A stretch of 64,000 bases of DNA from the NCBI GenBank assembly GCA_964016885.1, contig OZ024744.1, forward strand, positions 9,486,001-9,550,000. Direction: 5' to 3'. The notes beneath the pieces are model-generated. The model saw only the letters and a program-made list of their open reading frames with translations, searched no databases and was not told the origin of the DNA. The DNA comes from Eledone cirrhosa (lineage: Eukaryota). A program made the position numbers and the translations under genes. This document shows positions 5,504-54,700 of this stretch, piece after piece (position 1 is the first letter of the stretch; each line of letters starts with the position of its first letter).

Positions 5504-5511
<8 letters not shown>
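5375..5511. repeat. Palindrome with ~62-bp arms carrying a degenerate hammerhead-like core
   Basis: Mirror arms; CAGAAGA-TCCC GTTAA GGGT-GAAA at 5447-5470; the same terminus recurs at 8500-8540. Confidence 0.8.
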
Positions 5512-5545
<34 letters not shown>

Positions 5546-12713: not shown

Positions 12714-12744
12714 CCATTTTATGTTTTTAAATTATTTTTCACAG

Positions 12745-20745: not shown

Positions 20746-20756
20746 GTATGAGAATA

Positions 20757-27352: not shown

Positions 27353-29172
27353 ATGTTATGTGAGATATTATGTGAGGTAAAGCCTTTACTGTGGAAATAC
27401 AATAGTATATATAGAGTAATGTAAATGTTATGTGAGATATTATGTGAGGTAAAGCCTTTACTGTGAAAATACAATAGTATATATAGAGTAATGTAAATGT
27501 TATGTGAGATATTATGTGAGGTAAAGCCTTTACTGTGACAATACAATAGTATATATAGAGTAATGTAAATGTTATGTGAGGTATTATGTGAGGGAAAGCC
27601 TTTACTGTGGAAATACAATAGTATATATAGAGTAATGTAAATGTTATGTGAGGTATTATGTGAGGTAAAGCCTTTACTGTGAAAATACAATAGTAAATAT
27701 AGAGTAATGTAAATGTTATGTGAGATATTATATGAGGTAAAGCCTTTACTGTGAAAATACAATAGTTTATATAGAGTAATGTAAATGTTATGTGAGGTAA
27801 AGCCTTTACTGTGGAAATACAATAGTATATATAGTGTAATGTAAATGTTATGTGAGATATTATGTGAGGTAAAGCCTTTACTGTGAAAATACAATAGTAT
27901 ATATAGAGTAATGTAAATGTTATGTGAGGTAAAGCCTTTACTGTGGAAATACAATAGTATATATAGAGTAATGTAAATGTTATGTGAGGTAAAGCCTTTA
28001 CTGTGGAAATACAATAGTATATATAGAGTAATGTAAATGTTATGTGAGATATTATGTGAGGTAAAGCCTTTACTGTGAAAATACAATAGTATATATAGAG
28101 TAATGTAAATGTTATGTGAGATATTATGTGAGGTAAAGCCTTTACTGTGAAAATACAATAGTATATATAGAGTAATGTAAATGTTATGTGAGGTAAATCC
28201 TTTACTGTGGAAATACAATAGTATATATAGAGTAATGTAAATGTTATGTGAGATATTATGTGAGGTAAATCCTTTACTGTGGAAATACAATAGTATATGT
28301 AGAGTAATGTAAATGTTATGTGAGATATTATGTGAGGTAAATCCTTTACTGTGGAAATACAATAGTATATATAGAGTAATGTAAATGTTATGTGAGATAT
28401 GTGAGGTAAATCCTTTACTGTGGAAATACAATTGTATATATAGAGTAATGTAAATGTTATGTGAGATATTATGTGAGGTAAAGCCTTTACCGTGGAAATA
28501 CAATAGTATATATAGAGTAATGTAAATGTTATGTGAGGTATTATGTGAGGTAAAGCCTTTACTGTGGAAATACAATAGTATATATAGAGTAATGTAAATG
28601 TTATGTGAGGTAAAGCCTTTACTGTGAAAATACAATAGTATATATAGAGTAATGTAAATGTTATGTGAGATATTATGTGAGGTAAAGCCTTTACTGTGGA
28701 AATACAATAGTATATATAGAGTAATGTAAATTTTATGTGAGATATTATGTGAGGTAAATCCTTTACTGTGGAAATACAATAGTATATATAGAGTAATGGA
28801 AATGTTATGTGAGATATTATGTGAGGTAAATCCTTTACTGTGGAAATACAATAGTATATATAGAGTAATGTAAATGTTATGTGAGGTATTATGTGAGGTA
28901 AAGCCTTTACTGTGGAAATACAATAGTATATATAGAGTAAAGTAAATGTTATGTGAGATATTATGTGAGGTAAAGCCTTTACTGTGACAATACAATAGTA
29001 TATATAGAGTAATGTAAATGTTATGTGAGGTATTATGTGAGGTAAAGCCTTTACTGTGGATATACAATAGTATATATAGAATAATGTAAATGTTATGTGA
29101 GGTATTATGTGAGGTAAAGCCTTTACTGTGGAAATACAATAGTATATATAGAGTAAAGTAAAAGCTAAAGTG
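27353..29172 (-). repeat. 72-bp minisatellite array B2 ending in a piggyBac-like terminus
   Basis: About 25 units with 60-bp variants; ends GCTAAAGTG|TTAA (TTAA at 29173-29176). Confidence 0.95.
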
Positions 29173-29197
29173 TTAAATTAAATTGATATTATTACAG

Positions 29198-31093: not shown

Positions 31094-31312
31094 GTATCTG
31101 AATTACAAGACAAAGTCACTGCTGCAGAGACTGGCAATGCTGAATTACGAAACAAAGTTGATGACTTGGAGTATGATTATGAAAAGGCTGATCAACGTGC
31201 CAGAAAATTAGACCGACGACTAGCTGACAGTCTGCAGAAGTTGCGGGGTTATGAAGAGGACCCAGTTGTACATGAAGGGGGCCGTACCATCTCTGGTGTT
31301 TCAAAGAATAAG
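31094..31312 (+). CDS. BRE1: BRE1 coding exon 6
   Basis: VSELQDKVTAAETGNAELRNKVDDLEYDYEKADQRARKLDRRLADSLQKL; CTTTAG acceptor, GTAAGG donor; 219 nt. Confidence 0.93.
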
Positions 31313-31461
31313 GTAAGGCTGAATGTTACCTGTTCCGTCGTTCACTCTTTGACTATCTCATTGCTCAGTATGTATACTCCTCCTTCAACCCATATATGTT
31401 AATTCTCGCTTTCTCTCTCTCTAAGTTGTTGACTGTGACATTGAACATCTGACCAACACAC

Positions 31462-32510
31462 GTCTAGAATAAGGACGGGTTGGAAGAAGTTTAGGGAGCT
31501 GCTTCCTCTGCTGACAAAGAAGGGTTTCTCCCTACGAACGAAAGGCCGGTTATATGATGCTTGTGTGAGATGCGCGATGCTGCAAGGTAGTGAGACATAG
31601 GCAGCAATTGAGGAGGATATGCGACGGCTGGAGAGAAATGAGGCAAGCATGCTCCGTTGGATGTGCAATGTCAATGTGCTTGAATGACCGAGAGAAGAGA
31701 CTGAGGTGGTATGGACATGTGATGAGTTGAGAGAGAAACTGTGTCTGAGAGGGATAGAATATAGTGTGCGAGAGAGGAGACTGAGGTGGTATGGACATGT
31801 GATGAGTTGAGAGAGAAACTGTGTCTGAGAGGGATAGAATATAGTGTGCGAGAGAGGAGACTGAGGTGGTATGGACATGTGATGTGTTGAGAGAGAAACT
31901 GTGTCTGAGAGGGATAGAATATAGTGTGCGAGAGAGGAGACTGAGGTGGTATGGACATGTGATGAGTTGAGAGAGAAACTGTGTCTGAGAGGGATAGAAT
32001 ATAGTGTGCGAGAGAGGAGACTGAGGTGGTATGGACATGTGATGTGTTGAGAGAGAAACTGTGTCTGAGAGGGATAGAATGTAGTGTGCGAGAGAGGAGA
32101 CAGGTGGTATGGACATGTGATGTGTTGAGAGAGAAACTGTCTGAGAGGGATAGAATGTAGTGTGCGAGAGAGGAGACTGAGGTGGTATGGACATGTGATG
32201 AGTTGAGAGAGAAACTGTCTGAGAGGGATAGAATATAGTGTGCGAGAGAGGAGACTGAAGTGGTATGGACATGTGATGTGCATGAAGGATGACCGATGGG
32301 TGAAGAAGTGCCAGGAAATGCCAGTTGAAGGAAGACGTGGTAGAGGTAGACCACGAAAAACATGGGCGGAGGTGATGAGAACTGACCTCAGATCACTGAA
32401 GCTCACGGTGGAGATGACGAGTGGGGAGATGCTGTGCTGAATAAGACCTGTCCCACCCTTGCAAGCAGGGAAAAGCGGACGTAAAATGATGATGATGATG
32501 ATGATGATGT
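31462..32510 (+). mobile_element. RTE LINE 3' fragment containing an 80-bp tandem array (~7 units, 31690-32280)
   Basis: The unit derives from the ELREKL...RRLRWYGHVM coding segment. Confidence 0.9.
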
Positions 32511-32632
32511 TGCCATGGGTTAACACACACAGACAGACATCCTCAGTTTTGCTACAGAGTAGGTAGACCCAGAACAACCTGGGATGATCTAATAAATTCC
32601 GACCTCGCACACTTACACCTCTCTAAGACAAT

Positions 32633-33058
32633 GTCACTGGACCGAGACCTTTGGCGCTACGCAGTAATACAGAAGACCCGCCTTGCCTATATACAAAGCG
32701 AAACCTACAGTCAGTAGGCACCTCCTAATTAAAAACACAACCCCGCCCCATCCACACCACCCCTTTCGATGTAAAGTTATGTTGGTACCACGACATCCAG
32801 CCCGAAACAAATGAGGTCGTGTAGGTGTCACGACAAAAAAACACACAGTCCACGCTGTAATGTGGCCGTGTAGGCAACACGGTAAAAACCTCCCAGTCCA
32901 CACTGTAAACGTGGTTGGTGTTAGGAAGGGCATCCAGCCGTAGAAAACCCGCCAGACAGTCCTATACGAGTCAGACAACCAATCTTGCCTCACGTGGGGC
33001 AATTCTCGTCTAAACCCATGCTAGCGTGGAAGATGGACGTTAAATGATGATGATGGTG
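32633..33058 (+). mobile_element. RTE 3' end / 3' UTR
   Basis: Reverse complement of 5800-6260; (GAT)n tail. Confidence 0.85.
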
Positions 33059-33126
33059 ATTTTTAAAAGTTATCTTTTCTAAACTATGAAAGCAATTCCA
33101 GTGCTAACATGTTTCTTTCCTGACAG

Positions 33127-33266
33127 CTTGATGAGATCAGTACGGAATTGGAAGAACAACGGGAGTTTGCTAACACTCGACTTAGTGAATTGGAGACACT
33201 CAGCAAGGACCAACCTCCGCTACCACTCGACTTAGTGAATTGGAGACACTCAGCAAGGACCAACCT
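33127..33266 (+). pseudogene. Truncated duplicate of BRE1 exon 7 (copy 7a) with an internal ~50-bp duplication
   Basis: LDEISTELEEQREFANTRLSELETLSKDQ after GCTAAC...TTTCCTGACAG; the native donor is absent. Confidence 0.8.
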
Positions 33267-33648
33267 CTCCTCTTCTTCCTTTCATTGTGCTCAAATTAGT
33301 GGTGCCAGTCCTGAAGTTTGGAAGTTTACCATAATAGTCGGAGAGGGAAGATGAGTGTGGGTACTTGTGGAGGTGGTTGCTTGCTTTCTGCATCTGAAAT
33401 AAAGGTTTGCATGGTCGCTCAGGAACACGTGGATTCATATTCATATGTTGGGTTGTTCCATCATTGTAGTCCATCCATAATAAACAAAAATAAAGAATGA
33501 TAGTAGCACTAATAATTAATGTTTCGAATAGTGAGTCAAGGTATATATGTATTGCTGTGGTTTGGTTGGTCTGTGAGGGTAAAGTGGTGTGTGGGGCAGG
33601 TGAGAGGGAATGGAGAGATAGAATGAGGTAACTGAATTAGTTTCTTAA

Positions 33649-34861
33649 CCCTTTAGTGTTCAAACCGCCGAAATTATTTCCCCTTCATTTGTTCAAACTG
33701 CCCGAAATCGCCCGATAACACCCACACTAAAAAATCGTTAAAAAAATAAACAAACCATCATCAAAATATCGTCGATTCGAGACTACTGGGAGATTAGGCC
33801 CTTACCGCGAAAATTAACACTTAATATAGTGAAACAACTTAAAACAACAAGTGTTTTTTAACTTTGAAAGTTCAAATAATTTTTTATTTGTAACAACATG
33901 GCTTGTGAAGCGATACCGACTTTGAAGGTTTTACACACGACAACATTCAGAATGAACAAGAAACAAAAGATAATATTAGTGATTTATCTTCAAATGTTTA
34001 CATTTTTGAAATTTCGTCCGACGATGATTGTTTTGAAAGTGAAAACGAAGGAGATCTCCAGGGCGCCATTGAAAATATTACAGCAACATGGTTGAAAAAT
34101 ACCACACCAATATATGTTCCTGATTTTATTCAAAATACTGGTCCACAACACATTAGCTCCCGATGATAAAGCACTGGTTTATTTATTTTTATTTTTACCA
34201 CAAACTTTCTTCGAAGTTGTTGCAGAAAAGATTAATCGATATGCCCAACAACAGATTTCAAATCAAGGAAAACCCGATCTGTTTGACGACCGACAGATCC
34301 TGCGGAAATGCAAGCATTTTTTACCGTAAATATTATGTTCGGTATAAAACAATTTCCAAGACTGTCGAAATACTGGAACACTGATATAAGGTTTAGTGAT
34401 TCTTATATATCAAGTATTATGCCGAAAACAACGTATTTAAAATTAAACCAGTATTTGCACCTGGTTGATACTTCAAATGCCCCTATTAATTAATTTCACC
34501 TGCCCATAAAAGTCAAATTTGACCAAAAAATCAGGTAAAATTATATAATTGTAAATTATTGATATTTAAACATCTACTGACAAAATTTCAAGCCTGCACA
34601 TAGAAAATTAAGAAAATTACAAACAAATAAAATTGATAACCCTCTTGAGTATGATTAACTGAAAATAATTGTTTCTACTTTTGGCACAAGGCCAGTAATA
34701 ACCCAGTGTATTACTGGTACTTTATTTTATCCACCCCGTAAGGATGAAAGGCAAAGTTAACCTCGGCGGGATTTGAACTCAGAATGGCAAGGGCCGTAAC
34801 TCTATGCGTCAATGCGAACAGATAAGCATGACATTTGAAAATTAATGTGACTGCTAAAGGG
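33649..34861 (+). mobile_element. Defective piggyBac element (second copy)
   Basis: TTAA|CCCTTTAGTG...CTAAAGGG|TTAA; near-identical to 14459-15678. Confidence 0.9.
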
Positions 34862-35016
34862 TTAACTGAACTTATAACAGGATAAATAAAATGTCCGAAT
34901 AGGCTATGTTATAACATGGCGAAAAAATTTCAATGCTTGTAAATACGAATGATGGAGAACATAGTTTTTTAAATACTTGAATTCATTCCAGCGCTAACCT
35001 GTTTCTTTCCTGACAG

Positions 35017-35103
35017 TTTGATGAGATCAGTACGGAACTGGAAGAACAACGAGAGTTTGCTACCACTCGACTTAGTGAATTGGAGAATTGCCCTCTGAGA
35101 CAG
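35017..35103 (+). pseudogene. Truncated duplicate of BRE1 exon 7 (copy 7b); possible in-frame cassette exon
   Basis: FDEISTELEEQREFATTRLSELE+NCPLRQ; intact acceptor; CAG|GTCAGG at 87 nt keeps phase 0. Confidence 0.75.
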
Positions 35104-35274
35104 GTCAGGAACATGTCTCATTCACATGTTACAATCTTGGCATGATTTCTATGGCTGAATAACTGTATCAAACCTCTTTAAAGAGTGTACTGGGTGAGGA
35201 CACTTACCCTAACAGCCAGGGTGACCATGGCATTTTGTGGGCTTTCTCCATGAGTGACATTCGGAAAATACCCA

Positions 35275-35770
35275 TCATCATAATCATTTCATTTTACGTG
35301 TGCTTTTCCTTGCTTGCAAGGGTGGGACGGGAACTGATTCTGGCTTGATTTCTACAGCTGGATGCCCTTCCTAAGACAAACATCATTTACAGTGAGGGCT
35401 GGGTGCTTTTTTGTTCCGTGGCGCCTACACGTCCACTTTACAGTGTGGGCTGGGTGCTTTTTTGTTCCGTGGCGCCTACACGTCCACTTTACAGTGTGGG
35501 CTGGGTGCTTTTTTGCCTTGGCACCTCCACGATCACTTTACAGTGTGGGCTGGGTGCTTTTTTGCTGTGACATCTCCACGACCACTTTGCAGTGGAATGA
35601 TAGGGACGCCAGTCCCTATCATCTCATTTCTACAGCTGAGTAAACTGGAGCAACGTGAAATAAAGAGTCTTGCTCAAGGAAACAACACATCACCCAGTCT
35701 GAGAATTGAACTCACAACCTTTCGATTGCAAGCCCAATGCTCTAACCACTAAGCCTTCATGTGCCTCCAT
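35275..35770 (-). mobile_element. tRNA-derived SINE, family B
   Basis: Reverse complement of the 9479 family. Confidence 0.85.
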
Positions 35771-36159
35771 CTACTGAGGAATTTTCTTTTGTTCAACTTT
35801 TTATGTTTGTTGTTTCTGTTCACTATTTTTACACAAAGAAGCCCACATTGTGCCAGCCAGTACTGACTTTAACCATTTAGCATTTACATTACTCTATATA
35901 TACTATTGTATTGTCACAGTAAAGGCTTTACCTCACATAACATTTACATTACTCTATATATACGATTGTATTGTCACAGTAAAGGCTTTACCTCACATAA
36001 TATCTAACATAACATTTACATTACTCTATATATACTATTGTATTTTCACAGTAAAGGCTTTACCTCACATAATATCTCACATAACATTTACATTACTCTA
36101 TATATACTATTGTATTTTCACAGTAAAGGCTTTACCTCACATAACATTTACATTACTCT

Positions 36160-37113
36160 CATCATCATCATCATCATCATCGTTTAACGTCCGTGTTCCA
36201 TGCTTGCATGGGTTTGGACGGGAGTTTTCCCACTTGAGGCAAGAGTGGTTGTCTTGCTCGCATAGGACTGTCTGGCGGGTTTTCTACAGTTGGATGCCCT
36301 TCCTAACACCAACCACATTTACAGTGTGGGGCTGGGAGGTTTTTACCGTGTTGCCTACACGGCCACATTACAGCGTGGACTGTCTGGCAGGTTTTCTACA
36401 GCTGGATGCCCGTCCTAACACCAACCACATTTACAGTGTGGGACTGGGAGGTTTTTACCGTGTTGCCTACACGGTCACATTACAGCGTGGACTGTGTGTT
36501 TTTTTGTCGTGACACCTACACGATCTCATTTGTTTCGGCCTGGATTTTGTGGCACCAACATAACTTTACATTGAAAGGGGTGGTGGGGTGGTGGGACGGG
36601 GGTGTATTTTGTTAGAGATGCCTACTGACTAGTAGGTTTTACTTTGTATTTAGGTAACGCGGGTCTTCTCTATTACTGAGTACCGCCAAAGGTCTCGGTC
36701 CAGAGACATTGTCTTGGAGAGGCGTAAGTGTGTGAGGTCGGAATTTATCAGCTCGTCCCAGGTTTTTCTGGGTCTGCCTACTCCGTGGCTACTGTCTATC
36801 TTTATTGCCCTGCACTTTGCTATACAGCTGTCGTCTTTCATGCGCATCACGTGACCATACCAACGTAGCCTTCTCTCGAATAAACAACATCTGATCCCTC
36901 TTATTTCTAATTTTTTCCTTAGTTCGTTTATGCTTTGCCGTTCGCGTATATTATTATTACACATCCAGCGGAGCATGCAAGCTTCGTTCCTCTCTAGTCT
37001 GCGTATATCCTCTGCACACAATGCCCAGCTCTCACTGCCATGCAACATTGCTGTTCGTATGCAGGCATCATACAACCTGCCTTTCATTTTTAGGGAGAAC
37101 CCTTTAGCGGATA
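36160..37113 (-). mobile_element. RTE 3' fragment nested in the minisatellite
   Basis: ORF 36650-37087; (CAT)n tail at 36160; flanked by TACTCT on both sides. Confidence 0.92.
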
Positions 37114-37558
37114 ATACTCTATATATACTATTGTATTTTCACAGTAAAAGTGTTACCTCACATAATATCTCACATAACATTTACATTACTCTATATATAC
37201 TGTTGTATTTTCACGGTAAAAGCTTTACCTCACATATTATCTCACATAACATTTACATTACTCTATATATACTATTTTATTTTCACGGTAAAGGCTTTAC
37301 CTCACATAATATCTCACATAACATTTACATTACTCTATATATACTATTGTATTTTCACAGTAAGGTCTTTACCTCACATCATATCCCACATAACATTTAC
37401 ATTACTCTATATATACTATTGTATTTTCACAGTAAAGGCTTTACCTCACATAATATCTCACATAACATTTACATTACTCTATATATACTATAGTATTGTC
37501 ACAGTAAAGGCTTTACCTCACATAATATCTCACATAACATTTACATTATTCTATATAT

Positions 37559-38921
37559 GCTCTGTTCTTAGCCCTCTTCTGTTCATCATAGTCCTGCAGG
37601 CAATAACAGAGGAGTTTAAGACCGGATGCCCATGGGAACTCCTGTATGCTGATGACTTCGCACTCATAGCTGAATCTATGGTAGAACTAGAGAATAAATT
37701 CCAAACTTGGAAGCAGGGACTAGAAAGAAAGGGTCTCAAAGTCAACATGACAAAGACTAAGGTCCTTGTAAGTAGACGAGAAAACAGAACCCAGATCCCC
37801 CCAGGGAAATGGCCTTGCTCAGTATGTAGGAAAGGTGTAGGTAGGAACTCCATTCTCTGCCCCAAATGCAAACAATGAGTACACAAGAGATGTAGCGGAA
37901 TCTCAGGAAGCTTAATTAAGAATGTAGGATTCACATGCAGCAGCTGTGCTGATGCAGCAAGCAGCAAACAGCCACAGGAAACAAGTACCACCAATCTCTG
38001 GGAGGGCCCTGTAGAAACAGTAGACAGCTTCTGCTACCTAGGTGACCGAATTAGCAACGGAGGTGGGTGTTCAGAAAGTACAATAACTAGGGTAAGAACG
38101 GGATGGAAGAAGTTTAGGTAACTACTACCACTGCTAGCTGCAAAAGGCTTCTCCCTCAGAATGAAAGACAGACTGTATGATGCGTGTATCCGAACAGCGA
38201 TGTTGCATGGTAGTGAGACCTGGGCGCTGAAGGTGGAAGACTTACGTAGATTAGAGAGAAACGAAGCCTGCATGCTCCGATGGATGTGTAACAGTAATAT
38301 ACGCGAACGACAAAGCATAAGTGAATTGAGAGAGAGACTGAGCATAAGAGGAATCAAATGCTGTGTGCAGGAGAGGCGGTTGCGCTGGTATGGACATGTG
38401 ATGCGTATGAAGGATGGCAGCTGCATAAAAAGGTGCAGAGCACTAGAAGTTGATGGAAACCGCGGAGTGGGGAGACCCAAGATGACCTGGGATGAGGTGA
38501 TAAAAGCCGACCTTACCCAACTACACCTCTCAAAGACAATGACACACGACCGTGACTTCTGGCGTCACGCAGTAATACAGAGTACCCGACCTCCCATGGG
38601 TACAAGCTGAAGCATATAGACAATATGCCCCCACACCCCCCACCTCAAGGTGGTCGTGGAGGTGCCACGGCAAAAAAGCACCCAGCTCACACTGTAAAGT
38701 GGACGTGTAGGCGCCACGAAAAAGCACCCAGCACTCACTGTAAATGAGGTTGGTGTTAGGAAGGGCATCCAGCTGTAGAAATCAAGCCAGATCAGTTCCT
38801 GTATGAGCAAGGCATGGTCAGCCGACCAGACACTGCCCACAACAGGACAGCCCGTCTAACCCATGCTAGCGTGGAAGAACGGACGTAAAACGGTGATGAT
38901 GATGATGATGATGATGATGAT
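37559..38921 (+). mobile_element. RTE 3' fragment nested in the minisatellite
   Basis: SVLSPLLF...LLYADD...RRLRWYGH; (GAT)n tail. Confidence 0.93.
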
Positions 38922-39820
38922 ACTATTGTATTTTCACAGTAAGGTCATTACCTAACATATCTCACATAACATTTACATTATTCTATATATACTATTGTAT
39001 TTTAACAGTAAAGGCTTTACCTCACATAATACCTCACATAACATTTACATTCTCTATATATACTATTGTATTTTAACAGTAAAGGCTTTACCTCACATAA
39101 TATCTCACATAACATTTACATTCTCTATATATACTATTGTATTTTAACAGTAAAGGCTTTACCTCACATAATACCTCACATAACATTTACATTACTCTAT
39201 ATATACTATTGTATTGTCACAGTAAAGGCTTTACCTCACATAATATCTCACATAACATTTACATTACTCTTTATATACTATTGTATTTTCACAGTAAAGG
39301 CTTTACCTCACATAATATCTCACATAACATTTACATTACTCTATATATACTATTGTATTTTAACAGTAAAGGCTTTACCTCACATAATATCTCACATAAC
39401 ATTTACATTACTCTATATATACTATTGTATTGTCACAGTAAAGGCTTTACCTCACATAATATCTCACATAACATTTACATTCTCTATATATACTATTGTA
39501 TTTTAACAGTAAAGGCTTTACCTCACATAATATCTCACATAACATTTACATTACTCTATATATACTATTGTATTTTAACAGTAAAGGCTTTACCTCACAT
39601 AGTACCTCACATAACATTTACATTACTCTATATATACTATTGTATTTTCACGGTAAAGACTTTACCTCACATAATATCTCACATAACATTTACATTACTC
39701 TATATATACTATTGTATTTTCACAGTAAAGACTTTACCTCACATAATATCTCACATAACATTTACATTACTCTATATATACTATTGTATTTTCACGGTAA
39801 AGGCTTTACCTCACATAATA
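38922..39820 (+). repeat. 72-bp minisatellite array
   Basis: Same unit as array A. Confidence 0.95.
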
Positions 39821-40377
39821 ATCCTGTGTATTTTAAAATCCCAGTATATCACTTATTACTGTTATAAGCTTTATTTAAAACCTTCTCCTCGCTTAATATT
39901 AATCTTGGCTGAAATTTTCCAGGATTCATAAAAGTGGCCTCCCTCGTCCCTCTAAATCTCTAACCCCCCCCCCCCCCCCTCTTTATCACATACGTGCCTG
40001 TTGGTCTCTCTCTCTCTCTCTCTCGATCACTCCCTACTCGCACCAAATATAAATAAACCTGTTACGAGGTACGAATTTCAGAATTTGTCAACTCTTATTA
40101 ATGGTCAGTCCACTTCTATGAAATGTAATGTAAAAATACCATTTTCTTCTTGTCTCGCCACCCTTCGGTTCATTCATCCATATATCTGTATCATCGCCCA
40201 GAATCCAATCCTGCTTTCTCAATGCTATTCTATAATTCTGTCTGGTTGTTCTGAATAATCCTGTGTATTTTAAAATCCCAGTATATCGCTTATTACTGTT
40301 ATATGCTTTATTTAAAACCTTCTCCTCGCTAACTACCCCATACCCCTTCCGTCCGCCCCACTCTCCACCATTATTTT

Positions 40378-42916
40378 TTGGAGCAATCACAAGTCAGCGG
40401 CCTATGCTATCACTTCTCCTGGTTGCTTTTCGATATGATGGATGGACTAAGGAATTCTGGAGAGTCTGAAGAATCTGGACACTCAGTGACAATGCCAAAG
40501 ATAACGACAAATTCACCTCATGCTGCTGGACGAAAAGGCAGGGACTCCTCCTCTTTGTTTCGGCCGCGAATGGCCAACATAACCCCAACCCCATCCCCCT
40601 CACCCCTCCCTGCGCCCCACCCACCAAACGCAATCCAAAACTTCAGAGTTGGTACCATGAATGTAGGCACCTTAAAAGGTCGCTCTAATGAGGTTGTAGA
40701 AATGCTTGAACGTAAGGAGGTTGATGTTTGTTGTATTCAAGAGACCAGGTGGAGGGGCGGGTCTGCTAGATTCATTGTAGGTAAAAAACGATGCTATAAG
40801 CTTTTCTGGGTGGGAAATGACAATGGGCTGGGTGGGGTAGGAATCATGGTAGCAGAAAAATGGGTGGATAAGATAATAGACGTAAATAGAGTGAACGACA
40901 GAATAATTAAAATAAGACTTGTCCTCAATAGAACTACTGTGACAATAATATCTGCATATGCACCACAATCCGGACTGCCTGGCACTATAAAAGACAGATT
41001 CTATGAGACACTGATGCTCACTACCTCCCAAATAACCGACAGTGACTATATAATTATTGCTGGCGACCTAAATGGTCACGTTGGACAACATTGTGATGGC
41101 TATGACGGAATCCATGGAGGCTATGGGTTTGGTACTAGAAATGAGGAAGGCTCCAGAATCCTGGAATTCTGTGACGCAAATAACCTAACTATCTGTAACA
41201 CTAACTTCAAAAAACGAGACAATCACTTGATCGCCTATAGATCAGGGGAACACACAAGCCAGGTAGATTATATCCTTACCAGAAGACGTGACAGAGTGTC
41301 TGTTGTAAACACTAAATCCCTCCCCCATGAAGAATGCACCTCTCAACATAGACTCATAATTAGCGACCTCATAGACGTACTCGACAACAGAAGACGACTA
41401 TCCTCAGGAGAAAAATATGGAAGCTAAAGGACCCCACAGCCAGTAATAAATTTAAAAGCATACTACTTGATGCTTTCGACAGTAAGGAAGAGCAATTAGA
41501 GTTGTACAATATAGAGGAACAGTGGGAATTCCTGAAAGCAAACCTGCTGAAGGCGACAGATGAAGTCTGTGGCTGGAGCAGACCTATAGGCAGGAGGAGA
41601 GTAATGTGGTGGTGGAACAGTAAGGTGGAGGAGTCAATTAAGGACAAAAAGCTGGCTTGGAAAGTATGGCGGGATGGGGGAAGTAGAGAAGACTATCAAG
41701 TGGCCAGGAGGGAAGCTAGGAGACAAGTGTACTTCGCAAGAAGGGAAGCAGAGGAAAGAAAGTTCAAGCATGTTCTACAACGCGATGACCAAAAACGTGA
41801 GGTGTTCAGGATTGCTAGGCAATGTGTCAAGGAAAACCGTGATATTGTCGGGGAGAAGTGTGTCCTTAATGATGATGGTGTACTTGTCATCACTGACGCT
41901 GATAAGAAGGTAGCTTGGAAGTGTCACTACGAAAGGCTACTAAATGAGGAGAATAAATGGGAGAAAGACAGTCTCCCCCACATCGATCCAATAGAGGGAC
42001 CAGCAGTGTTAGTCGAAGGTAGTATAATAAGTAAGGCAATCAAAGATACGAAGACGGGTAAGGCGGTTGGGCCTTCGGAAATAGTTGCTGAGATGCTGAA
42101 AGCTTCTGGAACGGTGGTACACACTATGGTCACCCGGATAGTAAACCAAGTTATACAGAATGGGGTTGTTCCGAAGGACTGGCGTAGCAGATCATCATTA
42201 GCTGCTACAAGGGTAAAGGAGATGCCCTAGATAGGGGTAACTATAGAGGCATTAAATTAATCGACCAGGTCATGAAGGTCACAGAAAAAGTAATAGCGCA
42301 ACTAATCAGAAAGTGGTGAATTGATCTAGATGAAATGCAGTTCGGGTTTGTGTCAGGTAAAAGTACAACAGACGCTCTTTTCATTGTACGACAACTACAG
42401 GAGAAGTACCTAACTAAAAGTAAACCCCTATACTTAGCTTTTGTCGACTTGGAGAAAGCCTTTGACAGAGTCCCCCGTTCCATTATCTGGTGGGCTCTTA
42501 GAAAACTAGGTGTTGATGAATGGCTTGTGAGAGCTATACAAGCCATGTATAAAGAAACAGTCAGTAAGGTTAGAATTAACAACGAATATAGTGAAGAGTT
42601 TAGTGTAAAAGTTGGTGTTCATCAGGGCTCTGTTCTTAGCCCCCTACTATTTATTATCGCCCTCCAGGCTATAACAGTGGAGTTCAAGACCGGCTGCCTA
42701 TGGGAACTCCTATACGCAGATGATCTAACGCTCATAGCTGAATCAATGGCTGAACTAGAGAAGAAATTCGAAACATGGAAGCATGGCCTAGAATCAAAAG
42801 GCCTTAAAATTAACCTGCCTAAGACTAAAGTTCTAGTTTGTAGGAAGGAAAATAGGGCACAGGTGCCCTCAGGGAAATGGCCATGCTCAGTGTGTAGGAA
42901 ATGAGTAGGCAGAAAC
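40378..42916 (+). mobile_element. 5' two-thirds of an RTE LINE (APE endonuclease plus RT); 3' end missing
   Basis: VGTMNVGTL...CCIQETRW, AGDLNGHVG, SQHRL; RT QGSVLSP, YADD; a few frameshifts and stops. Confidence 0.95.
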
Positions 42917-42920
42917 GGCA

Positions 42921-45900
42921 GACGGAATCCTCTCAGTAGGAGAAGTCACCACAGACGTTTTCGGCGGTTTGAGCGTGGAGGTTCTGGTGCAAATGAGACC
43001 AGAACGAATAGCGAGAATACCACAGAGGGTGTCGCTCGATGGAGAAACATTTATATACATTTCAGCCGAGGGTAGGAGGCCCATATGTTACTACTGTTCA
43101 AGCAGGGGTCATCTAAGGGCTGCCTGTGCTCAATTGACAAAAAAAAAAGGCTCTTTTGCCTACACCCCACACACCACCACCACCACCACCACAACAACAA
43201 CAACAAAAACAACACGGAAAAATAACACAAGACACGGTTCCACCCAAAACAACTCCAAAAGCACACAAACACAACAAAACCCCAAAATACACCACTACCC
43301 GACAGCACGGACGAGGACCCAGCTGAAACGGCACCTAGTGACGAAGAGGGGGAACCCTTCCAACCTGTAAAAAGAAAAAAAAGAAAACACCGCACGAACA
43401 TAAACGAAACAAACACACAACCACCAACAAAAACAAAACAAACAGAACAAACAAAATCCACCCCACCCCAAAACATAACACATACAACAAAACGCAAGCA
43501 CACACAAGAACAACAAACGAACACAACACAAATAAAACAGTATACATACATTAACACAAATAACAAAGAACTAGTAAAAACAATACACAAAAACCTTTCG
43601 GTGGAAACTGAAGGGCAATTCTTTGCAAGCGCGGCCAACAAACCGCATTTAAAAATGATAAGAATCCCAATGGACACCTATGCAAAACTAAGAGAGAACT
43701 TTCCTGAGGACGTGGGGAAAACATGTACTCAACCCTATAACCGCGTCCTCTTCAAACGTTTCCCCACCCACACCTCACCAAACACCCCCACCCCACCACA
43801 GAACAACACCCCACCAAACAACCCCTCCAATACGCCGATGGATATTGTGCAACCTGCTCCTCAGGAGCCGAACAGGTAGGTCCTTCCTCTTTTAACCAAC
43901 ATGGCTGATATAAGAGTTGGGTGTCTGAATGTACGTGGCCTGGGACTGTCTTGGAAACAAGGCAAACTTTTAAACAATCTCAGGTCGCATAGAATGGATG
44001 TAATGGCTATTTGCGAGTCCAGGATCAGCAGCAAGTGCCAACTGGCGCCCCTCTTCGACGACTTTGAGATCGTCGCATCTCTCTGTCAACCGGGGGGTGG
44101 GGGTGGAGTTGTCGTTCTGCTGCGAAAACACCTGGGCCTCGCCATACAGAAGGTGCACCTGGACCCGGAGGGTCGACTGGTGGTTTTAGACGTCGGCAGT
44201 AGTGAAAGTGGAGCCCTTAGACTAATTGCTGTGCCCCTTTTTGGGCAGCGCGGCCGGAATACTTCCAACGTCTGGAAACTTTTCTGGGAACGTCCCGCTC
44301 CTTGCTTTTAGTGGGGGACTGGAATGGTATCCTGGATGCACGTTGGGACTATGTAGGGGCATGCGCCAATAGAGGGGGTGTAAAAGCCTCAAAAGGTTAA
44401 TCGGCCGATTTGACCTGGCCGATAGATATCGACTAGATTTTCCGACTGTACCACTATGGACGTGGACCAATCGCAGCGGAACATCCAGGTCTTACCTAGA
44501 TAGGGTACTAGTTAGAGAGAAGGCTAGGGACACATTTAGCTGTCCAAAATTGTTCATGGTTGACTATTCAGATCACAAGTTAGTGACCTGCATAGCCAAC
44601 CCTGATCGAACCCATAGCCAGGGACCCGGTTACTGGAAGCTGAACTTGTCCTTACCGACAAGCAAAGCTTACAGTAAACGGATTAGCACGTTAGTTAAGC
44701 AGAGTTTGACGGGCAATTGTCAACAACAGGTGGTGGAGCTCTCTTAAGAGAGCAATTAGAATAGAATCGATAGGTTTTAGTCAGGAATTAGCAAGGGATA
44801 GGAACAAGACGGAAAGGGAATTAGTAGATAGAGTAGAAGAGGCGATTAGGAGTGGCAATGTAGCCGGCGTGCTGGCATCAAGAATGGCCTTAGACCAGTT
44901 CTTTGAGGTGAAGCATGAAGGCTGCGTTGTCAGGAGTAAAATACGTGCTCTGGGTAATGAGGGAGCCAAAGCTGTTAGTTGGTCCCGAGTGACAGGCAAA
45001 AAGTGGGAACAAGTCCACGATTCGGTCTTTGAAGGACCAGGATGGGCGTGTGATCCTTGAACCTGGGCAGATGTGTGCGGCCTTTCAGCGGCACGTTGCA
45101 CGACTGTTCGGGAGGGGCGGCGCTCCGGGTGAGACTATGGATTTCAATCCATACCTCGACGGTCTGCCGCGCCTCTCGGACGCGGAGGCGAAGTCCTGCG
45201 AAAGGCCGATTTCAGCTGCTGAGATAGGGGCGGCGCTGAGCCAATGCGGCAAACGCAAATCCCCGGGTCTCGATTGTCTACCATACGAGCTATATGTAGA
45301 GATGCCGGACTTGTTCTCCGATATCCTCGAAGCGGTCTACTGCAACTGGCAGCAGAACGGGAGAATTCCCAGTTCTGTGACCAAGGGCGTAGTTACGCTG
45401 GTGAGGAAGGATGAGAACAAGGGGGATGACATAAGTAACTTCAGGCCCATAACTCTGCTAAATACAGAGTTAAAGATTTTGGCCAAGGTGTTAGCGAAGA
45501 GGTTGGCGCTTGTCGTCGGAAACCTGGTGGGAGAAGTGCAGACATGCACAATCCCATCCAGGTCCATTCACGACAATCTCCACCTTATGCGATACATCAT
45601 AGAGAGGGTAGGGAATGAACCCGGCTTTGGTGGGGTCCTGATCAACTTGGATCAATCTAAAGCTTTCGATAGGGTTGACCATCGTTACCTGGATGCCGTG
45701 CTCGCGGCGGCAGGCTTCGGACCCGTTTTCAGGGGTTGGATTGCTGCGATGCACAGCAGCAACGTCGGGTCAAGGTGAACGGCCACCTCTCGGAGCCGTT
45801 CCAAATCATGCGATCCATCCGATAGGGATGCCCTCTCTCCTCCCTTCTGTATGTGCTGGCTCTTGAGCCACTACTGCGGAAGTTGGAGCGGTTGCAGGGC

Positions 45901-47553
45901 ATCTTTGGAACCGGGATTGCAGAAAGCGGCGTCGGCCTACGCCGATGACGTGACAGTAATGGTGTCGAAAACCTCGCAAATCGGTGAGATCGGTACCTTA
46001 CTGGAGGAATATGAAAGGTTTACAGGAGCCAAGCTGAACCGGGACAAGTCCGTCGGTTTGCAACTCGGAACATGGAGAGGCAAACCGATGCCCTCCAATG
46101 ACGTCATCGGACGCTGGACGGAGGGCCCGGTGAAGCTGCTTGGGGTCTGGTTCGGACCAGACCTCCAGGTGGAGAAAAACTGGAACGAGGTACCGCCCAG
46201 GGTGTTTGCACTCACCCAGAAGTGGGCCCAGTGCAAACTATCCCTGAAAGGTCGAGCGGAGGTGGCGAATACTTATATAGCATCCGTCATCTACTACCGC
46301 TTGACCGTCATGCCTTGCCCAGTGAAAAGACTCGCCAAAATGGAGTGCGCGCTGTTCCAATTTCTTTGGAACAAGCGGACCCCTTTGGTGAGGAGATCCA
46401 TCTGCTGTCAACACCCTTCGAAAGGAGGGCTGGGGATGCCGTGGCTACAGATGCGTAAACACGCATTAAGGCTACGGCACCTCCAGGTATTCCTCACCGG
46501 TCAACCGGTGTGGGCCCCGTTTGTGAGGCGAGCCTTTCCCAGACTCGTCTCGCTCACCGAGCTGCAATCCTGGGTCAAGCAAAGACCGAGAAAAGTGGGC
46601 GACTGGCACATTGAATGTGCCCAGGCGCTCACGGCCCTCTGGAAAGCGGACCCGGCAATCAGTGGAGACTCCACCTCGACATTCTATAGAGGGTTGGTAC
46701 GCAGCAGGTGCGACGATGCTCTCGGGGAAGCTCTAGGCATGGAGGAAGATGAACTGGCCAGTCTGTTCGGTAGGACGTTTGGCCCTGGACCGATGGACAA
46801 CTTCCAAAAGTCCCTGGCTTGGCAGTGCTACCGAGGGGCTCTACCCGTTCGAGACAAGCTCCACAGGCATGGGAGCCTGGGTAGAGATCCTTTGAATAAG
46901 ATCTGTCCGAGATGCGTGCATGACGACGAAACCGTTGCGCATGCATTCGTACACTGCCCAGGCATTGCTGACCTGTGGGGCTATGTGGAACGACTACTGT
47001 CGAGGGTGGGACCAATCCGGTTGACCACCGAGTCCATTGTAACGATCAAACCGCCTCCCCCTTTCAAAAACGAAGGAGAGGCGGTTTTTCTCTGTGTGAT
47101 AGCCATGGCTAAAGAAGTTGTATGGTGGACGAGGCTGAAAGGGCTGAGGTCAGACACCTTTCTCTCCGGCCAACAACTGATCGCCTTTTTCAAATAGCAT
47201 TTTAAAAGAAGGATCAGAATGGAGAGAGGTGTTCTACCCCAGCAAGTTTTATGAAAGGTGGGTGAAAGTAGGGAGAATGCCAGAGTGAATGGGTCTTCTC
47301 TCTATATCAGCCTGTAGGTGAAAGAAGAGGAAAAAGAGGAGACGAGGGAAGCACCTACTCTTTGTGCTCCTGAGGAGAAGGGTTACACATTTTTTCGGGG
47401 TGTGTGCGACCCATGTTAATGCTCCCTCCCTATTGAGGACTTCGTTTGTTGTTGTTATTTCATTGTTATATTTTTGTACTCGTTAATTATATGTAAACTT
47501 CCCCCCTTGTATCTGTCCCTACCTTTTGTGCCCTAGTGGCAAATAAAGAAATC
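42921..47553 (+). mobile_element. 5'-truncated Tx1/L1-clade LINE, second copy
   Basis: Near-identical to the reverse complement of 21757-26386; intact YADD; ends AATAAAGAAATC. Confidence 0.95.
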
Positions 47554-49337
47554 ACTTTATATATACTATTGTATTTTCACAGTAATGTCTTTACCTCACA
47601 TAATATCTCACATAACATTTACATTACTCTATATATACTATTGTATTTTCACAGTAAAGGTTTTACCTCACATAATATCTCACATAACATTTACATTACT
47701 CTATATATACTATTGTATTTTCACAGTAAAGGCTTTACCTCACATAATATCTCACATAACATTTACATTACTCTATATATACTATTGTATTTTCACAGTA
47801 AAGGTTTTACCTCACATAATATCTCACATAATATTTACATTACTCTATATATACTATTGTATTTTCACAGTAAAGGCTTTACCTCACATAATATCTCACA
47901 TAACATTTACATTACTCTATATATACTATTGTATTTTCACAGTAAAGGTTTTACCTCACATAATATCTCACATAACATTTACATTACTCTATATATACTA
48001 TTGTATTTTCACAGTAAAGGCTTTACCTCACATAATATCTCACATAACATTTACATTACTCTATATATACTATTGTATTTTCACAGTAAAGGTTTTACCT
48101 CACATATCTCACATAACATTTACATTACTCTATATATACTATTGTATTTTCACAGTAAAGGTTTTACCTCACATAATATCTCGTATAACATTTACATTAC
48201 TCTTTATATACTATTGTATTTTCACAGTAAAGGCTTTACCTCACATAACATATACATTACTCTATATATACTATTGTATTTTCACAGTAAAGGTTTTACC
48301 TCACATATCTCACATAACATTTACATTACTCTATATATACTATTGTATTTTCACAGTAAAGGCTTTACCTCACAATATCTCACATAACATTTACATTACT
48401 CTATATATACTATTGTATTTTCACAGTAAAGGCTTTACCTCACAATATCTCACATAACATTTACATTACTCTATATATACTATTGTATTTTCACAGTAAA
48501 GGCTTTACCTCATATAATATTTACATTACTCTATATATACTATTGTATTGTCACAGTAAAGTCTTTACCTCACATAATATCTCACATAACATTTACATTA
48601 CTCTATATATACTATTGTATTTTCACAGTAAAGGCTTTACCTCACATAATATCTCGCATAACATTTACATTACTCTATATAAACTATTGTATTGTCACAG
48701 TAAAGGCTTTACCTCACATAACATTTACATTACTCTATATATACTATTGTATTTTCACAGTAAAGGCTTTACCTCACATAATATCTCACATAACATTTAC
48801 ATTACTCTATATATACTATTGTATTGTCACAGTAAAGTCTTTACCTCACATAATACCTCACATAACATTTACATTACTCTAAATATACTATTGTATTGTC
48901 ACAGTAAAGTCTTTACCTCACATAATACCTCACATAACATTTACATTACTCTATATATACTATTGTATTTTCACAGTAAAGGCTTTACCTCACATAACAT
49001 TTACATTACTCTATATATACTATCGTATTTTCACAGTAAAGGCTTTACCTCACATAACATTTACATTACTCTATATATACTATTGTATTGTCACAGTAAA
49101 GTCTTTATATCACATAATACCTCACATAACATTTACATTACTCTATATAAACTATTGTATTTTCACAGTTAAGGCTTAACCTCACAGAACATTTACATTA
49201 CTCTATATATACTATTGTATTTTCACAGTTAAGGCTTTACCTCACATAATATCTCACATAACATTTACATTACTCTATATATACTATTGTATTTTCACAG
49301 TTAAGGCTTTACCTCACATAATATCTCACATAATATC
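47554..49337 (+). repeat. 72-bp minisatellite array (~25 units)
   Basis: Same unit as array A. Confidence 0.97.
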
Positions 49338-49475
49338 GAATCTATGAGTATTTATTTTGAGAACAATACTATAACATCAGTATAAGCGACCAGTTACAGC
49401 CAGTTTCGCCAGAAAGAGGTAGAGAATTCTGACCGGTTTGAACATTAAAAGGTTAATGTTTTCTTTATTTGACAG

Positions 49476-49601
49476 TTTGATGAGATCAGTACGGAACTGG
49501 AAGAACAACGAGAGTTTGCTACCACTCGACTTAGTGAATTGGAGAAACTCAGCAAGGACCACCACGAGGCACTGAAGGAAATTGAACAACTTAGGATGGA
49601 T
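49476..49601 (+). CDS. BRE1: BRE1 coding exon 7 (complete copy)
   Basis: FDEISTELEEQREFATTRLSELEKLSKDHHEALKEIEQLRMD resembles the RNF20/40 'LEEnkELA..RL.ELEKL' region; GACAG acceptor, GTAAGT donor; 126 nt. Confidence 0.93.
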
Positions 49602-49854: not shown

Positions 49855-51170
49855 AATGGTGACACAGCCTCAGAGGTGACCTGGTGGCAGTGGCCAGCAA
49901 ATCTTACCTTCCTTTTACAGACAACAACAGATATGGGTCGGAGGCTGGCATATCTCTCTCTCAATGGTGACACAGCCTCAGAGGTGACCCGGTGTCAGTC
50001 AACAGCAAATCTTACCCTCCTTTTACAGACAACAACAGATATGGGTCGGAGGCTGGCATATCTCTCTCTCAATGGTGACACAGCCTCAGAGGTGACCTGG
50101 TGTCAGTCAACAGCAAATCTTACCCTCCTTTTACAGACAACAACAGATATGGGTCGGAGGCTGGCATATCTCTCTCTCAATGGTGACACAGCCTCAGAGG
50201 TGACCCGGTGGCAGTGGCCAGCAAATCTTACCCTCCTTTTACAGACAACAACAGATATGGGTCGGAGGCTGGCATATCTCTCTCTCAATGGTGACACAGC
50301 CTCAGAGGTGACCTGGTGGCAGTGGCCAGCAAATCTTACCCTCCTTTTACAGACAACAACAGATATGGGTCGGAGGCTGGCATATCGCTCTCTCAATGGT
50401 GACACAGCCTCAGAGGTGACCCGGTGGCAGTGGCCAGCAAATCTTACCCTCCTTTTACAGACAACAACAGATATGGGTCGGAGGCTGGCATATCTCTCTC
50501 TCAATGGTGACACAGCCTCAGAGGTGACCTGGTGGCAGTGGCCAGCAAATCTTACCCTCCTTTTACAGACAACAACAGATATGGGTCGGAGGCTGGCATA
50601 TCTCTCTCTCAATGGTGACACAGCCTCAGAGGTGACCCGGTGGCAGTGGCCAGCAAATCTTACCCTCCTTTTACAGACAACAACAGATATGGGTCGGAGG
50701 CTGGCATATCTCTCTCTCAATGGTGACACAGCCTCAGAGGTGACCTGGTGGCAGTGGCCAGCAAATCTTACCCTCCTTTTACAGACAACAACAGATATGG
50801 GTCGGAGGCTGGCATATCTCTCTCTCAATGGTGACACAGCCTCAGAGGTGACCTGGTGGCAGTGGCCAGCAAATCTTACCCTCCTTTTACAGACAACAAC
50901 AGATATGGGTCGGAGGCTGGCATATCTCTCTCTCAATGGTAACACAGCCTCAGAGGTGACCCGGTGTCAGTCGCCAGCAAATCTTACCCTCCTTTTACAG
51001 ACAACAACAGATATGGGTCGGAGGCTGGCATATCTCTCTCTCAATGGTGACACAGCCTCAGAGGTGACCCGGTGGCAGTGGCCAGCAAATCTTACCCTCC
51101 TTTTACAGACAACAACAGATATGGCTTGGAGGCTGGCATATCTCTCTCTCAATGGTGACACAGCCTCAGA
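49855..51170. repeat. 108-bp tandem array (~12 units) amplified from within a minus-strand RTE-like LINE 3' fragment (49700-51215)
   Basis: The unit encodes RRVRFAGHC; the flanks continue the LINE (HLDGTYTRLL; AMNDR). Confidence 0.92.
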
Positions 51171-51767: not shown

Positions 51768-54700
51768 CACCCTTTCTCCTACACTACACCACACCACCAC
51801 CCTTCCTCCTACACCACACCACAACCCTTCCTCCTACACTACACCACACCACCACCCTTCCTCCTGCACTACACCACACCACCACCCTTCCTCCTACACT
51901 ACACCACACCACCACCCTTCCTCCTGCACTACACCACACCACCACTTTCCTCCTACACTACACTACACCACACCACCACCCTTCCTCCTACACCACACCA
52001 CAACCCTTCCTCCTACACTACACCACACCACCACCCTTCCTCCTACACTACACCACACCACCACCCTTCCTCCTGCACTACACCACACCACCACCCTTCC
52101 TCCTACACTACACCACACCACCACTTTCCTCCTACACTACACCACACCACCACCCTTCCTCCTACACTACACCACACCACCACCCTTCCTCCTACACTAC
52201 ACCACACCACCACCCTTCCTCCTACACTACACCACACCACCACCTTCCTCCTACACTACACCACACCACCACCCTTCCTCCTACACTACACCACACCACC
52301 ACCCTTCCTCCTACACTACACCACACCACCACCCTTCCTCCTACACTACACCACACCACCACCCTTCCTCCTACACTACACCACACCACCACCTTCCTCC
52401 TACACTACACCACACCACCACCCTTCCGCCTATACTACACCACACCACTACCCTTCCTCCTACACTACACCACACCACCACCCTTCCTCCTACACTACAC
52501 CACACCACCACCCTTCCTCCTACACTACACCACACCACCACCCTTCCTCCTACACTACACCACACCACCACCCTTCCTCCTACACTACACCACACCACCA
52601 CCCTTCCTCCTATACTACACCACACCACCACCCTTCCTCCTGCACTACACCACACCACCACCCTTCCTCCTACACTACACCACACCACCACCCTTCCTCC
52701 TACACCACACCACCACCCTCCTGCACTACACCACACCACTACCACCCTCCTGCACTACACCACACCACCACCCTTCCTCCTACACTACACCACACCACTA
52801 CCACCCTCCTGCACTACACCACACCACCACCCTTCCTCCTATACTACACCACACCACCACCCTTCCTCCTGCACTACACCACACCACCACCCTTCCTCCT
52901 ACACTACACCACACCACCACCCTTCCTCCTACACCACACCACCACCCTCCTGCACTACACCACACCACTACCACCCTCCTGCACTACACCACACCACCAC
53001 CCTTCCTCCTACACTACACCACACCACTACCACCCTCCTGCACTACACCACACCACCACCCTTCCGCCTATACTACACCACACCACAACCCTTCCTCCTA
53101 CACTACACCACACCACCACCCTTCCTCCTACACTACACCACACCACCACCCTTCCTCCTGCACTACACCACACCACCACCCTTCCTCCTACACTACACCA
53201 CACCACCACCCTTCCTCCTGCACTACACCACACCACCACCCTTCCTCCTACACTACACCACCACCCTTCCTCCTGCACTACACCACACCACCACCCTTCC
53301 TCCTACACTACACCACACCACCACCCTTCCTCCTACACTACACCACACCACCACCCTTCCTCCTATACTACACCACACCACCACCCTTCCTCCTGCACTA
53401 CACCACACCACCACCCTCCTGCACTACACCACACCACCACCCTTCCTCCTACACTACACCACCACCCTTCCTCCTGCACTACACCACACCACTACCCTTC
53501 CTCCTACACTACACCACACCACCACCTTCCTCCTACACTACACCACACCACCACCCTTCCTCCTACACTACACCACACCACCACCCTTCCTCCTATACTA
53601 CACCACACCACTACCCTTCCTCCTACACTACACCACACCACCACCCTTCCTCCTACACTACACCACCACCCTCCTGCACTACACCACACCACTACCACCC
53701 TCCTGCACTACACCACACCACCACTCTTCCTCCTACACTACACCACACCACCACCCTTCCTCCTACACTACACCACACCACCACCCTTCCTCCTATACTA
53801 CACCACACCACTACCCTTCCTCCTACACTACACCACACCACCACCCTTCCTCCTACACTACACCACACCACCACCCTTCCTCCTACACCACATCACACCA
53901 CCACCCTTCCTCCTACACTACACCACACCACCACCTTCCTCCTACACCACACCACCACCCTTCCTCCTGCACTACACCACACCACCACCCTTCCTCCTAC
54001 ACCACACCACCACCCTTCCTCCTACACCACACCACACCACCACCCTTCCTCCTATACTACACCACACCACTACCCTTCCTCCTACACTACACCACACCAC
54101 CACCCTTCCTCCTACACCACACCACACCACTACCCTTCCTCCTACACTACACCACACCACTACCCTTCCTCCTACACTACACCACACCACCACCCTTCCT
54201 CCTACACTACACCACACCACCACCCTTCCTCCTACACCACACCACCAGGCTTCCTCCTACACTACACCACACCACCACCCTTCCTCCTACACCACACCAC
54301 ACCACCACCACCCTCCTACACTACACCACACCACTACCCTTCCTCCTACACTACACCACACCACCACCCTTCCTCCTACACTACACCACACCACCACCCT
54401 TCCACCTACACTACACCACACCACCACCACCCTCCTGCACTACACCACACCACCACCCTTCCTCCTACACTACACCACACCACCACCCTTCCTCCTACAC
54501 TACACCACACCACCACCCTCCTACACTACACCACACCACCACCCTTCCTCCTACACTACACCACACCACCACCCTTCCTCCTACACTACACCACACCACC
54601 ACCCTTCCTCCTACACTACACCACACCACCACCCTTCCTCCTACACCACACCACACCACCACCCTTCCTCCTACACTACACCACACCACCACCCTTCCTC

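Follow-up and report, generated by a model that had tools for sequence, protein, structure and literature searches.

How could a conserved coding exon remain spliceable once a transposable element has come to lie within its acceptor? This question is raised by a 64,000-nucleotide (nt) stretch of the Eledone cirrhosa genome (contig OZ024744.1, positions 9,486,001 to 9,550,000) – hereafter the window, in whose own coordinates all positions are given – that carries coding exons 1-7 of a Bre1 (RNF20/40) gene on its forward strand. In intron 6 of this gene, a piggyBac-derived element occupies positions 35873-49452 between two copies of TTAA and ends 23 nt before exon 7. A preliminary description of the locus proposed that the element splits the exon 7 acceptor, displaces its apparent branch point by about 13.6 kb, and leaves splicing dependent on a branch point supplied by the element's terminal inverted repeat (TIR) and TTAA. 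We favor, at a probability of roughly 0.6, a more modest account: a short non-autonomous piggyBac-type element entered a host TTAA that separated the likely branch point from the acceptor, later growth by satellite and long interspersed nuclear element (LINE) sequence enlarged it, and exon 7 is likely spliced through the TTAAT at -20.

Ends and flanks of the intron 6 element

The boundaries given in the preliminary description proved exact. Excising 35873-49456 (13,584 nt), which spans the element and one of the two TTAA copies at 35869-35872 and 49453-49456, yields the same 35-nt empty site that the description had reconstructed. The TACTGAC at the left edge now stands 13,584 nt from its place in that site, in agreement with the claimed displacement. 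Both TTAA copies and the stranded TACTGAC can be read directly in the window (Table 1).

Consistent with membership in the piggyBac superfamily, the element has TTAA on both flanks, TIRs of the family type, and ends that match those of transposase-encoding relatives. Two such relatives of 1.2 kb are present in the window (14459-15678 and 33649-34861); they share identical terminal octamers and retain piggyBac transposase remnants, with the DDE_Tnp_1_7 cut-off passed by two of the five frames scanned (E 1.2e-10 and 3.2e-11, respectively). The terminal octamers of the exon 7 element differ from the octamer common to the four ends of these intact relatives at one and two of 8 nt. Its left end resembles the relatives' B end, and the last 116 nt of its right end align to the A end with 79 identities, a result equaled by none of 1000 shuffles (17 of 1000 when the second relative was used). 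The element thus has one B-type and one A-type end in the correct orientation, and no additional terminus was found inside it. The relatives' transposase region has no match within 35873-49452, and the four inner open reading frames (ORFs) scanned, of many listed, contained LINE domains only. By these sequence features the exon 7 element is a non-autonomous piggyBac derivative. An empty paralogous flank of one relative (18050-18078, 26 of 29 nt identical) contains a single TTAA, which indicates that the family normally duplicates a host TTAA target.

The preliminary description took two partial copies of exon 7 within intron 6, here called 7a and 7b, as independent support for the element boundaries. 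Their acceptors lie where it placed them (33098-33126 and 34988-35016), and the 11-mer at the element's left flank agrees with the 7a/7b motif in 9 of its 11 positions when the comparison is anchored and ungapped. At offsets of -4 to +8, this level was reached at a single one of the window's 500 TTAA sites (the true site), and at offsets of -4 to +20 at two of 500, with motif limits that were set after the fact. Longer comparisons fell to chance level. Local alignments against references of 15, 20, 25, 30, and 40 nt were equaled at 8, 22, 52, 163, and 348 of 500 TTAA sites, counts that take in the true site, and a 60-nt global alignment at 88 of 500. Among the unique flanks we detected no further homology (2 of 56 segment pairs at p<=0.05, as expected by chance). 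The left flank therefore appears to share with 7a and 7b a real-looking patch of 11 nt without extended homology, and the support that this lends to the boundaries is modest. The presence of two distinct family-type ends is, on sequence grounds, better boundary evidence.

Two broader proposals for 7a and 7b were rejected. An extended homology of the left flank to the two copies is at odds with the chance-level results for longer alignments and flank segments, and a simple tandem duplication with paralogous flanks fails on the same 2 of 56 segment pairs and on a lack of further flank copies by BLAST. Over 71 nt the exon part of 7b shows no difference from exon 7, yet its acceptor groups with that of the decayed 7a, a mismatch in affinity that makes both copies imperfect stand-ins for the ancestral site. 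The identity of 7b could stem from conversion, recent copying, or selection. We regard 7a and 7b as paralogous patches, not as the ancestral site. Between the acceptor of exon 7 and those of 7a/7b there are also two further 1-nt gaps in 19 nt, from which we conclude that small indels are common at these acceptors.

Table 1. Features of the intron 6 locus and comparison sites, in window coordinates.
Feature	Positions	Strand	Remarks
For comparison, B-type terminus of the satellite element in intron 4 (on the - strand), TTAA 29173-29176, exon 5 acceptor	29151-29197	+	Branch-like AGCTAAA (-30), TGTTAAA (-22)
Bre1 coding exon 6	31094-31312	+	Open, ends in phase 0; 70/72 aligned residues as in Octopus sinensis Bre1 (P0001)
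Intron 6	31313-49475	+	18,163 nt
Partial copy 7a: acceptor, ~87 nt of exon 7 (decayed), then 50-nt tandem duplication	33098-33213	+	TGCTAAC at -20; reads into stop; 5 differences in first 71 nt
Deleted 1.2-kb piggyBac relative, separate from exon 7 element; defines the family's two end types	33649-34861	+	Perfect 8-nt ends; transposase remnant (DDE_Tnp_1_7, E 3.2e-11)
Partial copy 7b: acceptor and 71/71 nt of exon 7	34988-35103	+	CGCTAAC at -20; possible in-frame donor CAG/GTCAGG at 35103/35104
Stranded 5' half of old acceptor	35857-35868	+	TACTGAC 35861-35867 (A at 35866)
Left TTAA	35869-35872	.	
Left (B-type) terminus leading into 72-bp satellite	35873-36159	+	CCATTTAG; ~4 satellite units
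LINE 3' fragment, trinucleotide tail	36160-37114	-	TACTCT on each side (likely target duplication within satellite)
72-bp satellite	37115-37558	+	~6 units
Related LINE, 3' fragment with trinucleotide tail	37559-38919	+	
72-bp satellite	38920-39820	+	~12.6 units
LINE 5' part	39821-42916	+	Endonuclease and reverse-transcriptase remnants
Tx1-like LINE, 5'-truncated	42917-47551	+	96.4% identical to inverted intron 4 copy
72-bp satellite	47552-49336	+	~25 units
Right (A-type) subterminal region and terminus	49337-49452	+	TTCTGAC (A at -44), CATTAAA (A at -28); 79 identities to end of 33649 element, 0/1000 shuffles as good
GGTTAAT, likeliest present branch motif (predicted)	49451-49457	+	A at 49456 (-20); spans right TTAA 49453-49456
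T-rich tract and CAG acceptor, still joined to exon 7	49457-49475	+	
Bre1 coding exon 7	49476-49601	+	126 nt, open, GTAAGT donor; 41/42 residues

Exon 7 and its branch-point motifs

The gene around the element is intact as far as the window reaches: all seven coding exons are open, in phase, and bordered by AG and GT. Exon 7 agrees with O. sinensis Bre1 at 41 of 42 residues, and the neighboring exons 2, 3, and 6 at 55 of 56, 21 of 21, and 70 of 72 (P0001); exon 4 is 92% identical. Judged by these alignments, exon 7 is conserved on a par with its neighbors, which suggests that it is still included in the mRNA. A more distant genomic ORF (P0170) has exon 7 borders at identical positions and is too diverged to reveal the old intron. 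The introns of the gene consist mostly of repeats (4,448 of 37,253 nt unmasked), and a repeat edge lies 23-45 nt upstream of five of the six coding acceptors.

We compared candidate branch motifs by a U2-pairing score of our own, which simply counts the pairs formed with U2. A score of 11 was obtained both for the stranded TACTGAC and for the TGCTAAC of 7a. TACTGAC, the best-pairing motif and the putative old branch point, now lies, judging from its position, beyond reach of exon 7. Three motifs remain: GGTTAAT at -20 (score 7), CATTAAA at -28 (7), and TTCTGAC at -44 (9). The branch-like A residues at -20 and -28 are at usable distances with no intervening AG – none lies between the GGTTAAT A and the acceptor – whereas the -44 motif is followed by an AG at -25. 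The human consensus YUNAY and the optimal spacing of 16-25 nt described in PMC8624252 fit the -20 site, and according to PMC7969005 AGs are chosen that lie more than about 8-12 nt beyond a branch point. We rejected TTCTGAC as the main branch point, which would favor the AG at -25 and add 24 nt containing an in-frame stop. The likeliest remaining branch A is thus predicted to lie in GGTTAAT at -20, with the terminus-borne CATTAAA at -28 as the other candidate.

The preliminary claim that exon 7 needs a branch point supplied by the TIR and TTAA holds in part. TACTGAC is out of reach and GGTTAAT is the likeliest substitute; the empty site, however, already contains TTAAT at -20, with a score of 6. 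A canonical insertion keeps this host TTAAT in place, so the terminus changes two bases, adding just GG and one extra G-U pair (6 to 7). The GG and CATTAAA are element-borne in any case, and TTAAT would be of host origin under canonical insertion and element-borne if the element was captured together with both its TTAA ends.

Comparison with the rest of the gene suggests that the claim is overstated in a second respect. The best U2 scores at the other five coding acceptors range from 6 to 9, against 7 at exon 7, and CTRAY with its A within 42 nt was found at none of the six, so a weak branch motif appears to be normal in this Bre1 gene. The 13.6 kb is, moreover, a nested pile and probably not a single event (see below). 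We found no special RNA structure at the acceptors in four regions (z -1.6 to 0.6), and an Rfam scan of 29000-52000 returned one tRNA-like short interspersed nuclear element (SINE) head and nothing else. A cephalopod branch-point map was not among the matches listed in our literature search.

Downstream of the stranded TACTGAC itself stand an AG belonging to the element, at a distance of 14 nt (35880), and a CAG of the satellite, at 53 nt (35919), where a cryptic acceptor is possible; reading on from either leads into a stop.

Probable growth of the element and competing histories

The nested contents of the element are plain from the sequence. Its interior consists of four arrays of a 72-bp satellite (3.4 kb in all), three trinucleotide-tailed LINE fragments, putatively of the RTE clade, and a 4.6-kb Tx1-like LINE. 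The satellite unit aligns with the subterminal region of the piggyBac family, and all inner arrays share one direction. TACTCT on both sides of the LINE fragment at 36160-37114 indicates that this insertion postdates the satellite array, and the junctions at 39820/39821 and 42916/42917 look like deletions. We infer that a short founder, perhaps of 0.2 kb, grew in place; the 13.6 kb would then be a pile built stepwise from satellite and LINE fragments, probably not the product of one insertion event. A founder even this short would already have cut off the branch point.

In the order of events that we propose, a short non-autonomous element would have entered a host TTAA between TACTGAC and the acceptor, and the target duplication would have regenerated a TTAA downstream, such that a yUnAy-type core and its 20-nt spacing could outlast the insertion unchanged. 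TTAAT at -20 would then serve exon 7 splicing, while satellite expansion and LINE insertion enlarged the element to 13.6 kb. Exon 7 would have fallen from a strong branch motif to one as weak as those of the gene's other acceptors.

Several observations weigh against this account. TTAA flanks occur for any piggyBac element and are no proof that both ends stem from one event. The homology of the left flank rests, as far as alignments can tell, on 11 nt and is non-significant over longer spans. The reconstruction needs a 4-nt gap exactly at TTAA; 7a and 7b lack a TTAA, so that canonical insertion requires an unrelated 4-nt indel at the same spot, and removing both TTAA copies improves the alignment (30 vs 27 with 7a, 26 vs 19 with 7b). 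The branch-point rules that we cite are human and yeast, not cephalopod, and are used together with a home-made U2 score. Exon 8 is not in the window, so that the integrity of the gene is seen through exon 7, and our exon 7 search, with three matches among 179 candidates, found no same-species protein containing the exon 6-7 junction.

The alignment gain would follow if the old acceptor, like 7a and 7b, had no TTAA and an excised element carrying both TTAA ends was captured at a break, making the branch motif wholly transposon-derived. Removing 35869-49456 then closes the 4-nt gap and sets the 11-mer match at the exact offset (1 of 500 TTAA sites). Excised piggyBac DNA has 4-nt TTAA overhangs (PMC7351741), and non-canonical insertions do occur, at about 2% as cited in PMC8717057; the non-canonical case described there nevertheless still spans a 4-nt target, with no TTAA added without one. 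The family control in the window is a normal single-TTAA target, and the other two gaps in 19 nt show how readily indels arise here. We consider such a capture unlikely; were it true, the substitute branch point inferred in the preliminary description would hold fully. A bolder form of this idea treats the family's ends as portable branch-point cassettes: the exon 7 element would have brought both TTAA copies, exon 7 and likewise exon 5 would depend on wholly transposon-made branch points, and 7b would be kept as a strong-acceptor alternative. The related terminus that the preliminary description noted near exon 5 is indeed present, with its TTAA (29173-29176) 21 nt upstream of the exon. All eight termini in the window, read downstream, end in TTAA, and seven of them have a second YTRA 8 nt earlier, so they could land between a branch point and its AG and replace the signal that they cut off. 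Termini were not significantly enriched near acceptors (two of four downstream-facing termini vs 5 of 32 unmasked intronic TTAA sites, P ~0.12), and we hold this combined proposal to be decidedly doubtful.

The left flank could instead be the wrong partner, with the two ends coming from separate insertions joined by deletion or satellite recombination and the 11-mer match being due to chance. The non-significant longer tests (88/500 global, 52/500 at 25 nt), the deletion-like interior junctions, and the intron-2 and intron-4 arrays, each of which has lost one end, fit this history. It is made improbable by the anchored test (1/500), the complementary end types, and the single direction of the inner arrays. 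A different possibility is that the insertion weakened exon 7 and that selection maintains 7b, whose acceptor is intact and strong, for use as an additional or alternative exon. Copy 7b has 71 of 71 nt identical, against five differences in 7a (zero differences at the rate of 7a would have a chance of ~0.007), and CTAAC at -20 with an in-frame donor would define a stop-free 87-nt exon (35017-35103). Gene conversion or recent copying would account for the identity just as well, the donor departs from the consensus at +3, a swap of 7b for exon 7 would trade 18 conserved residues for five unrelated ones, and no such protein appeared in the exon 7 search; selective retention of 7b is accordingly quite improbable. 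The old branch point might even still be used if the inverted ends paired in the pre-mRNA and looped out the 13.6 kb. These ends are partly complementary, but their predicted duplex reaches -6.7 kcal/mol over 16 nt, compared with -17.5 and -18.7 in intact relatives, and 378 YAG trinucleotides intervene, the first AG standing 14 nt past the old branch A. Such looping seems scarcely tenable.

Neighboring repeats and known systems

The Tx1-like LINE is present in two copies, at 21758-27352 (-) in intron 4 and 42917-47551 (+) in the exon 7 element, which are 96.4% identical and meet the 72-bp satellite at the same phase. Over both copies we identified Exo_endo_phos, RVT_1, and zf-RVT domains. The Tx1 placement rests on the name of a single hit, without a tree: among 120 matches listed, one is a 'Transposon TX1 uncharacterized 149 kDa protein' (36% identity, E 7.7e-59) and the others are unnamed or generic. 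The B-type ends of the two host elements differ at several of their first 22 nt. The shared phase of the 3' junction (2/2 copies) could reflect either targeted insertion or transfer between arrays. A variant shared by the arrays downstream of the LINEs (4/13 and 6/22 units) is absent from two upstream arrays (0/24 and 0/12), a pattern that speaks for common descent of the copies.

Repeats also approach other exons of the gene. The sense satellite unit carries an acceptor-like motif (16 in intron 2, 13075-14313; 45 in intron 6, 35881-49336) that runs directly into a stop in the frame of exon 6, and the inverted unit carries a donor-like motif (30 in intron 4, 20760-29162, - strand). Intron 4 (20746-29197, 8,452 nt) is nearly all satellite and LINE element, with 36 nt unmasked; the donor region of exon 4 looks like a satellite variant found at ~21481, so even this 5' splice site may be satellite-like or else the mark of a microhomology deletion. 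A SINE at 12546-12744, its end 27 nt upstream of exon 2, contributes the two best branch-like motifs of that acceptor (-43 and -50), a parallel to exon 7. The intron-2 array (13067-14313) shares the CCATTTA end at its start with the exon 7 element and lacks both a flanking TTAA and a second end. Elsewhere, tandem arrays of 80, 132, and 156 bp at 31689-32278 and 16166-16631 are made from the 3' region of the trinucleotide-tailed LINE. Intron 7 contains a 108-bp array of 12 copies, spanned by an open frame of 509 codons (49855-51170), and a 30-bp array of about 419 copies that runs past the window end (51768-64000). Near-perfect fold-back palindromes lie upstream of the gene (230-720, 1300-2370, 4400-4860, and 4900-5530) and are, by eye, mostly centered on AT microsatellites.

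The individual parts of this locus have known counterparts. Tandem arrays formed by amplification of an inner segment between the termini of a small element are described for DTC84 of Donax trunculus (PMC3879986) and Xstir of Xenopus (PMC6947457). In DTC84 the repeats number at most five and the target is AA, compared with arrays of up to ~25 units of 72 bp and a TTAA target here. The exon 7 element resembles the non-autonomous piggyBac elements of PMC7351741 in its TTAA on both sides, short inverted ends starting with CC, and relatives with transposase remnants; it differs in its decayed ends, the lack of an inner transposase remnant, and the satellite and LINE cargo that makes up 13.5 of its 13.6 kb. 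In Xenopus, Tx1 LINEs insert in Tx1D, a non-autonomous piggyBac (PMC4494074), similar to the Tx1-like LINE within a non-autonomous piggyBac-type element here, whose junction with the satellite has one phase in both copies. The two copies in the window could, unlike the Xenopus case, descend from one event, and target specificity is not implied.

Transposons that contribute part or all of a branch motif from within or beside the zone between branch point and AG are likewise on record. [quoted passage not shown] These cases are mammalian, mostly involve new or cryptic exons, and are in some instances mapped. Here, in contrast, a piggyBac-derived element adjoins a conserved octopod coding exon, with the TTAA target itself as the core motif, whose use is predicted. 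A search of open-access full text that required all terms returned no paper joining a piggyBac or TTAA insertion with a branch point and an acceptor, which is weak evidence of absence.

Since branch points added or removed by transposons are already documented, a single case changes little, and the outcome described here is tidy but ordinary for repeat-filled introns. It would carry more weight if a genome-wide excess of this family's termini at this position came to light, or if both TTAA copies came from the element. If confirmed, the locus would be a clean example from nature of a split acceptor whose two halves are both still readable. It would also explain in simple terms how an exon can tolerate TTAA-targeting transposons at a distance of 20-25 nt – the target duplication preserves a yUnAy-type core.

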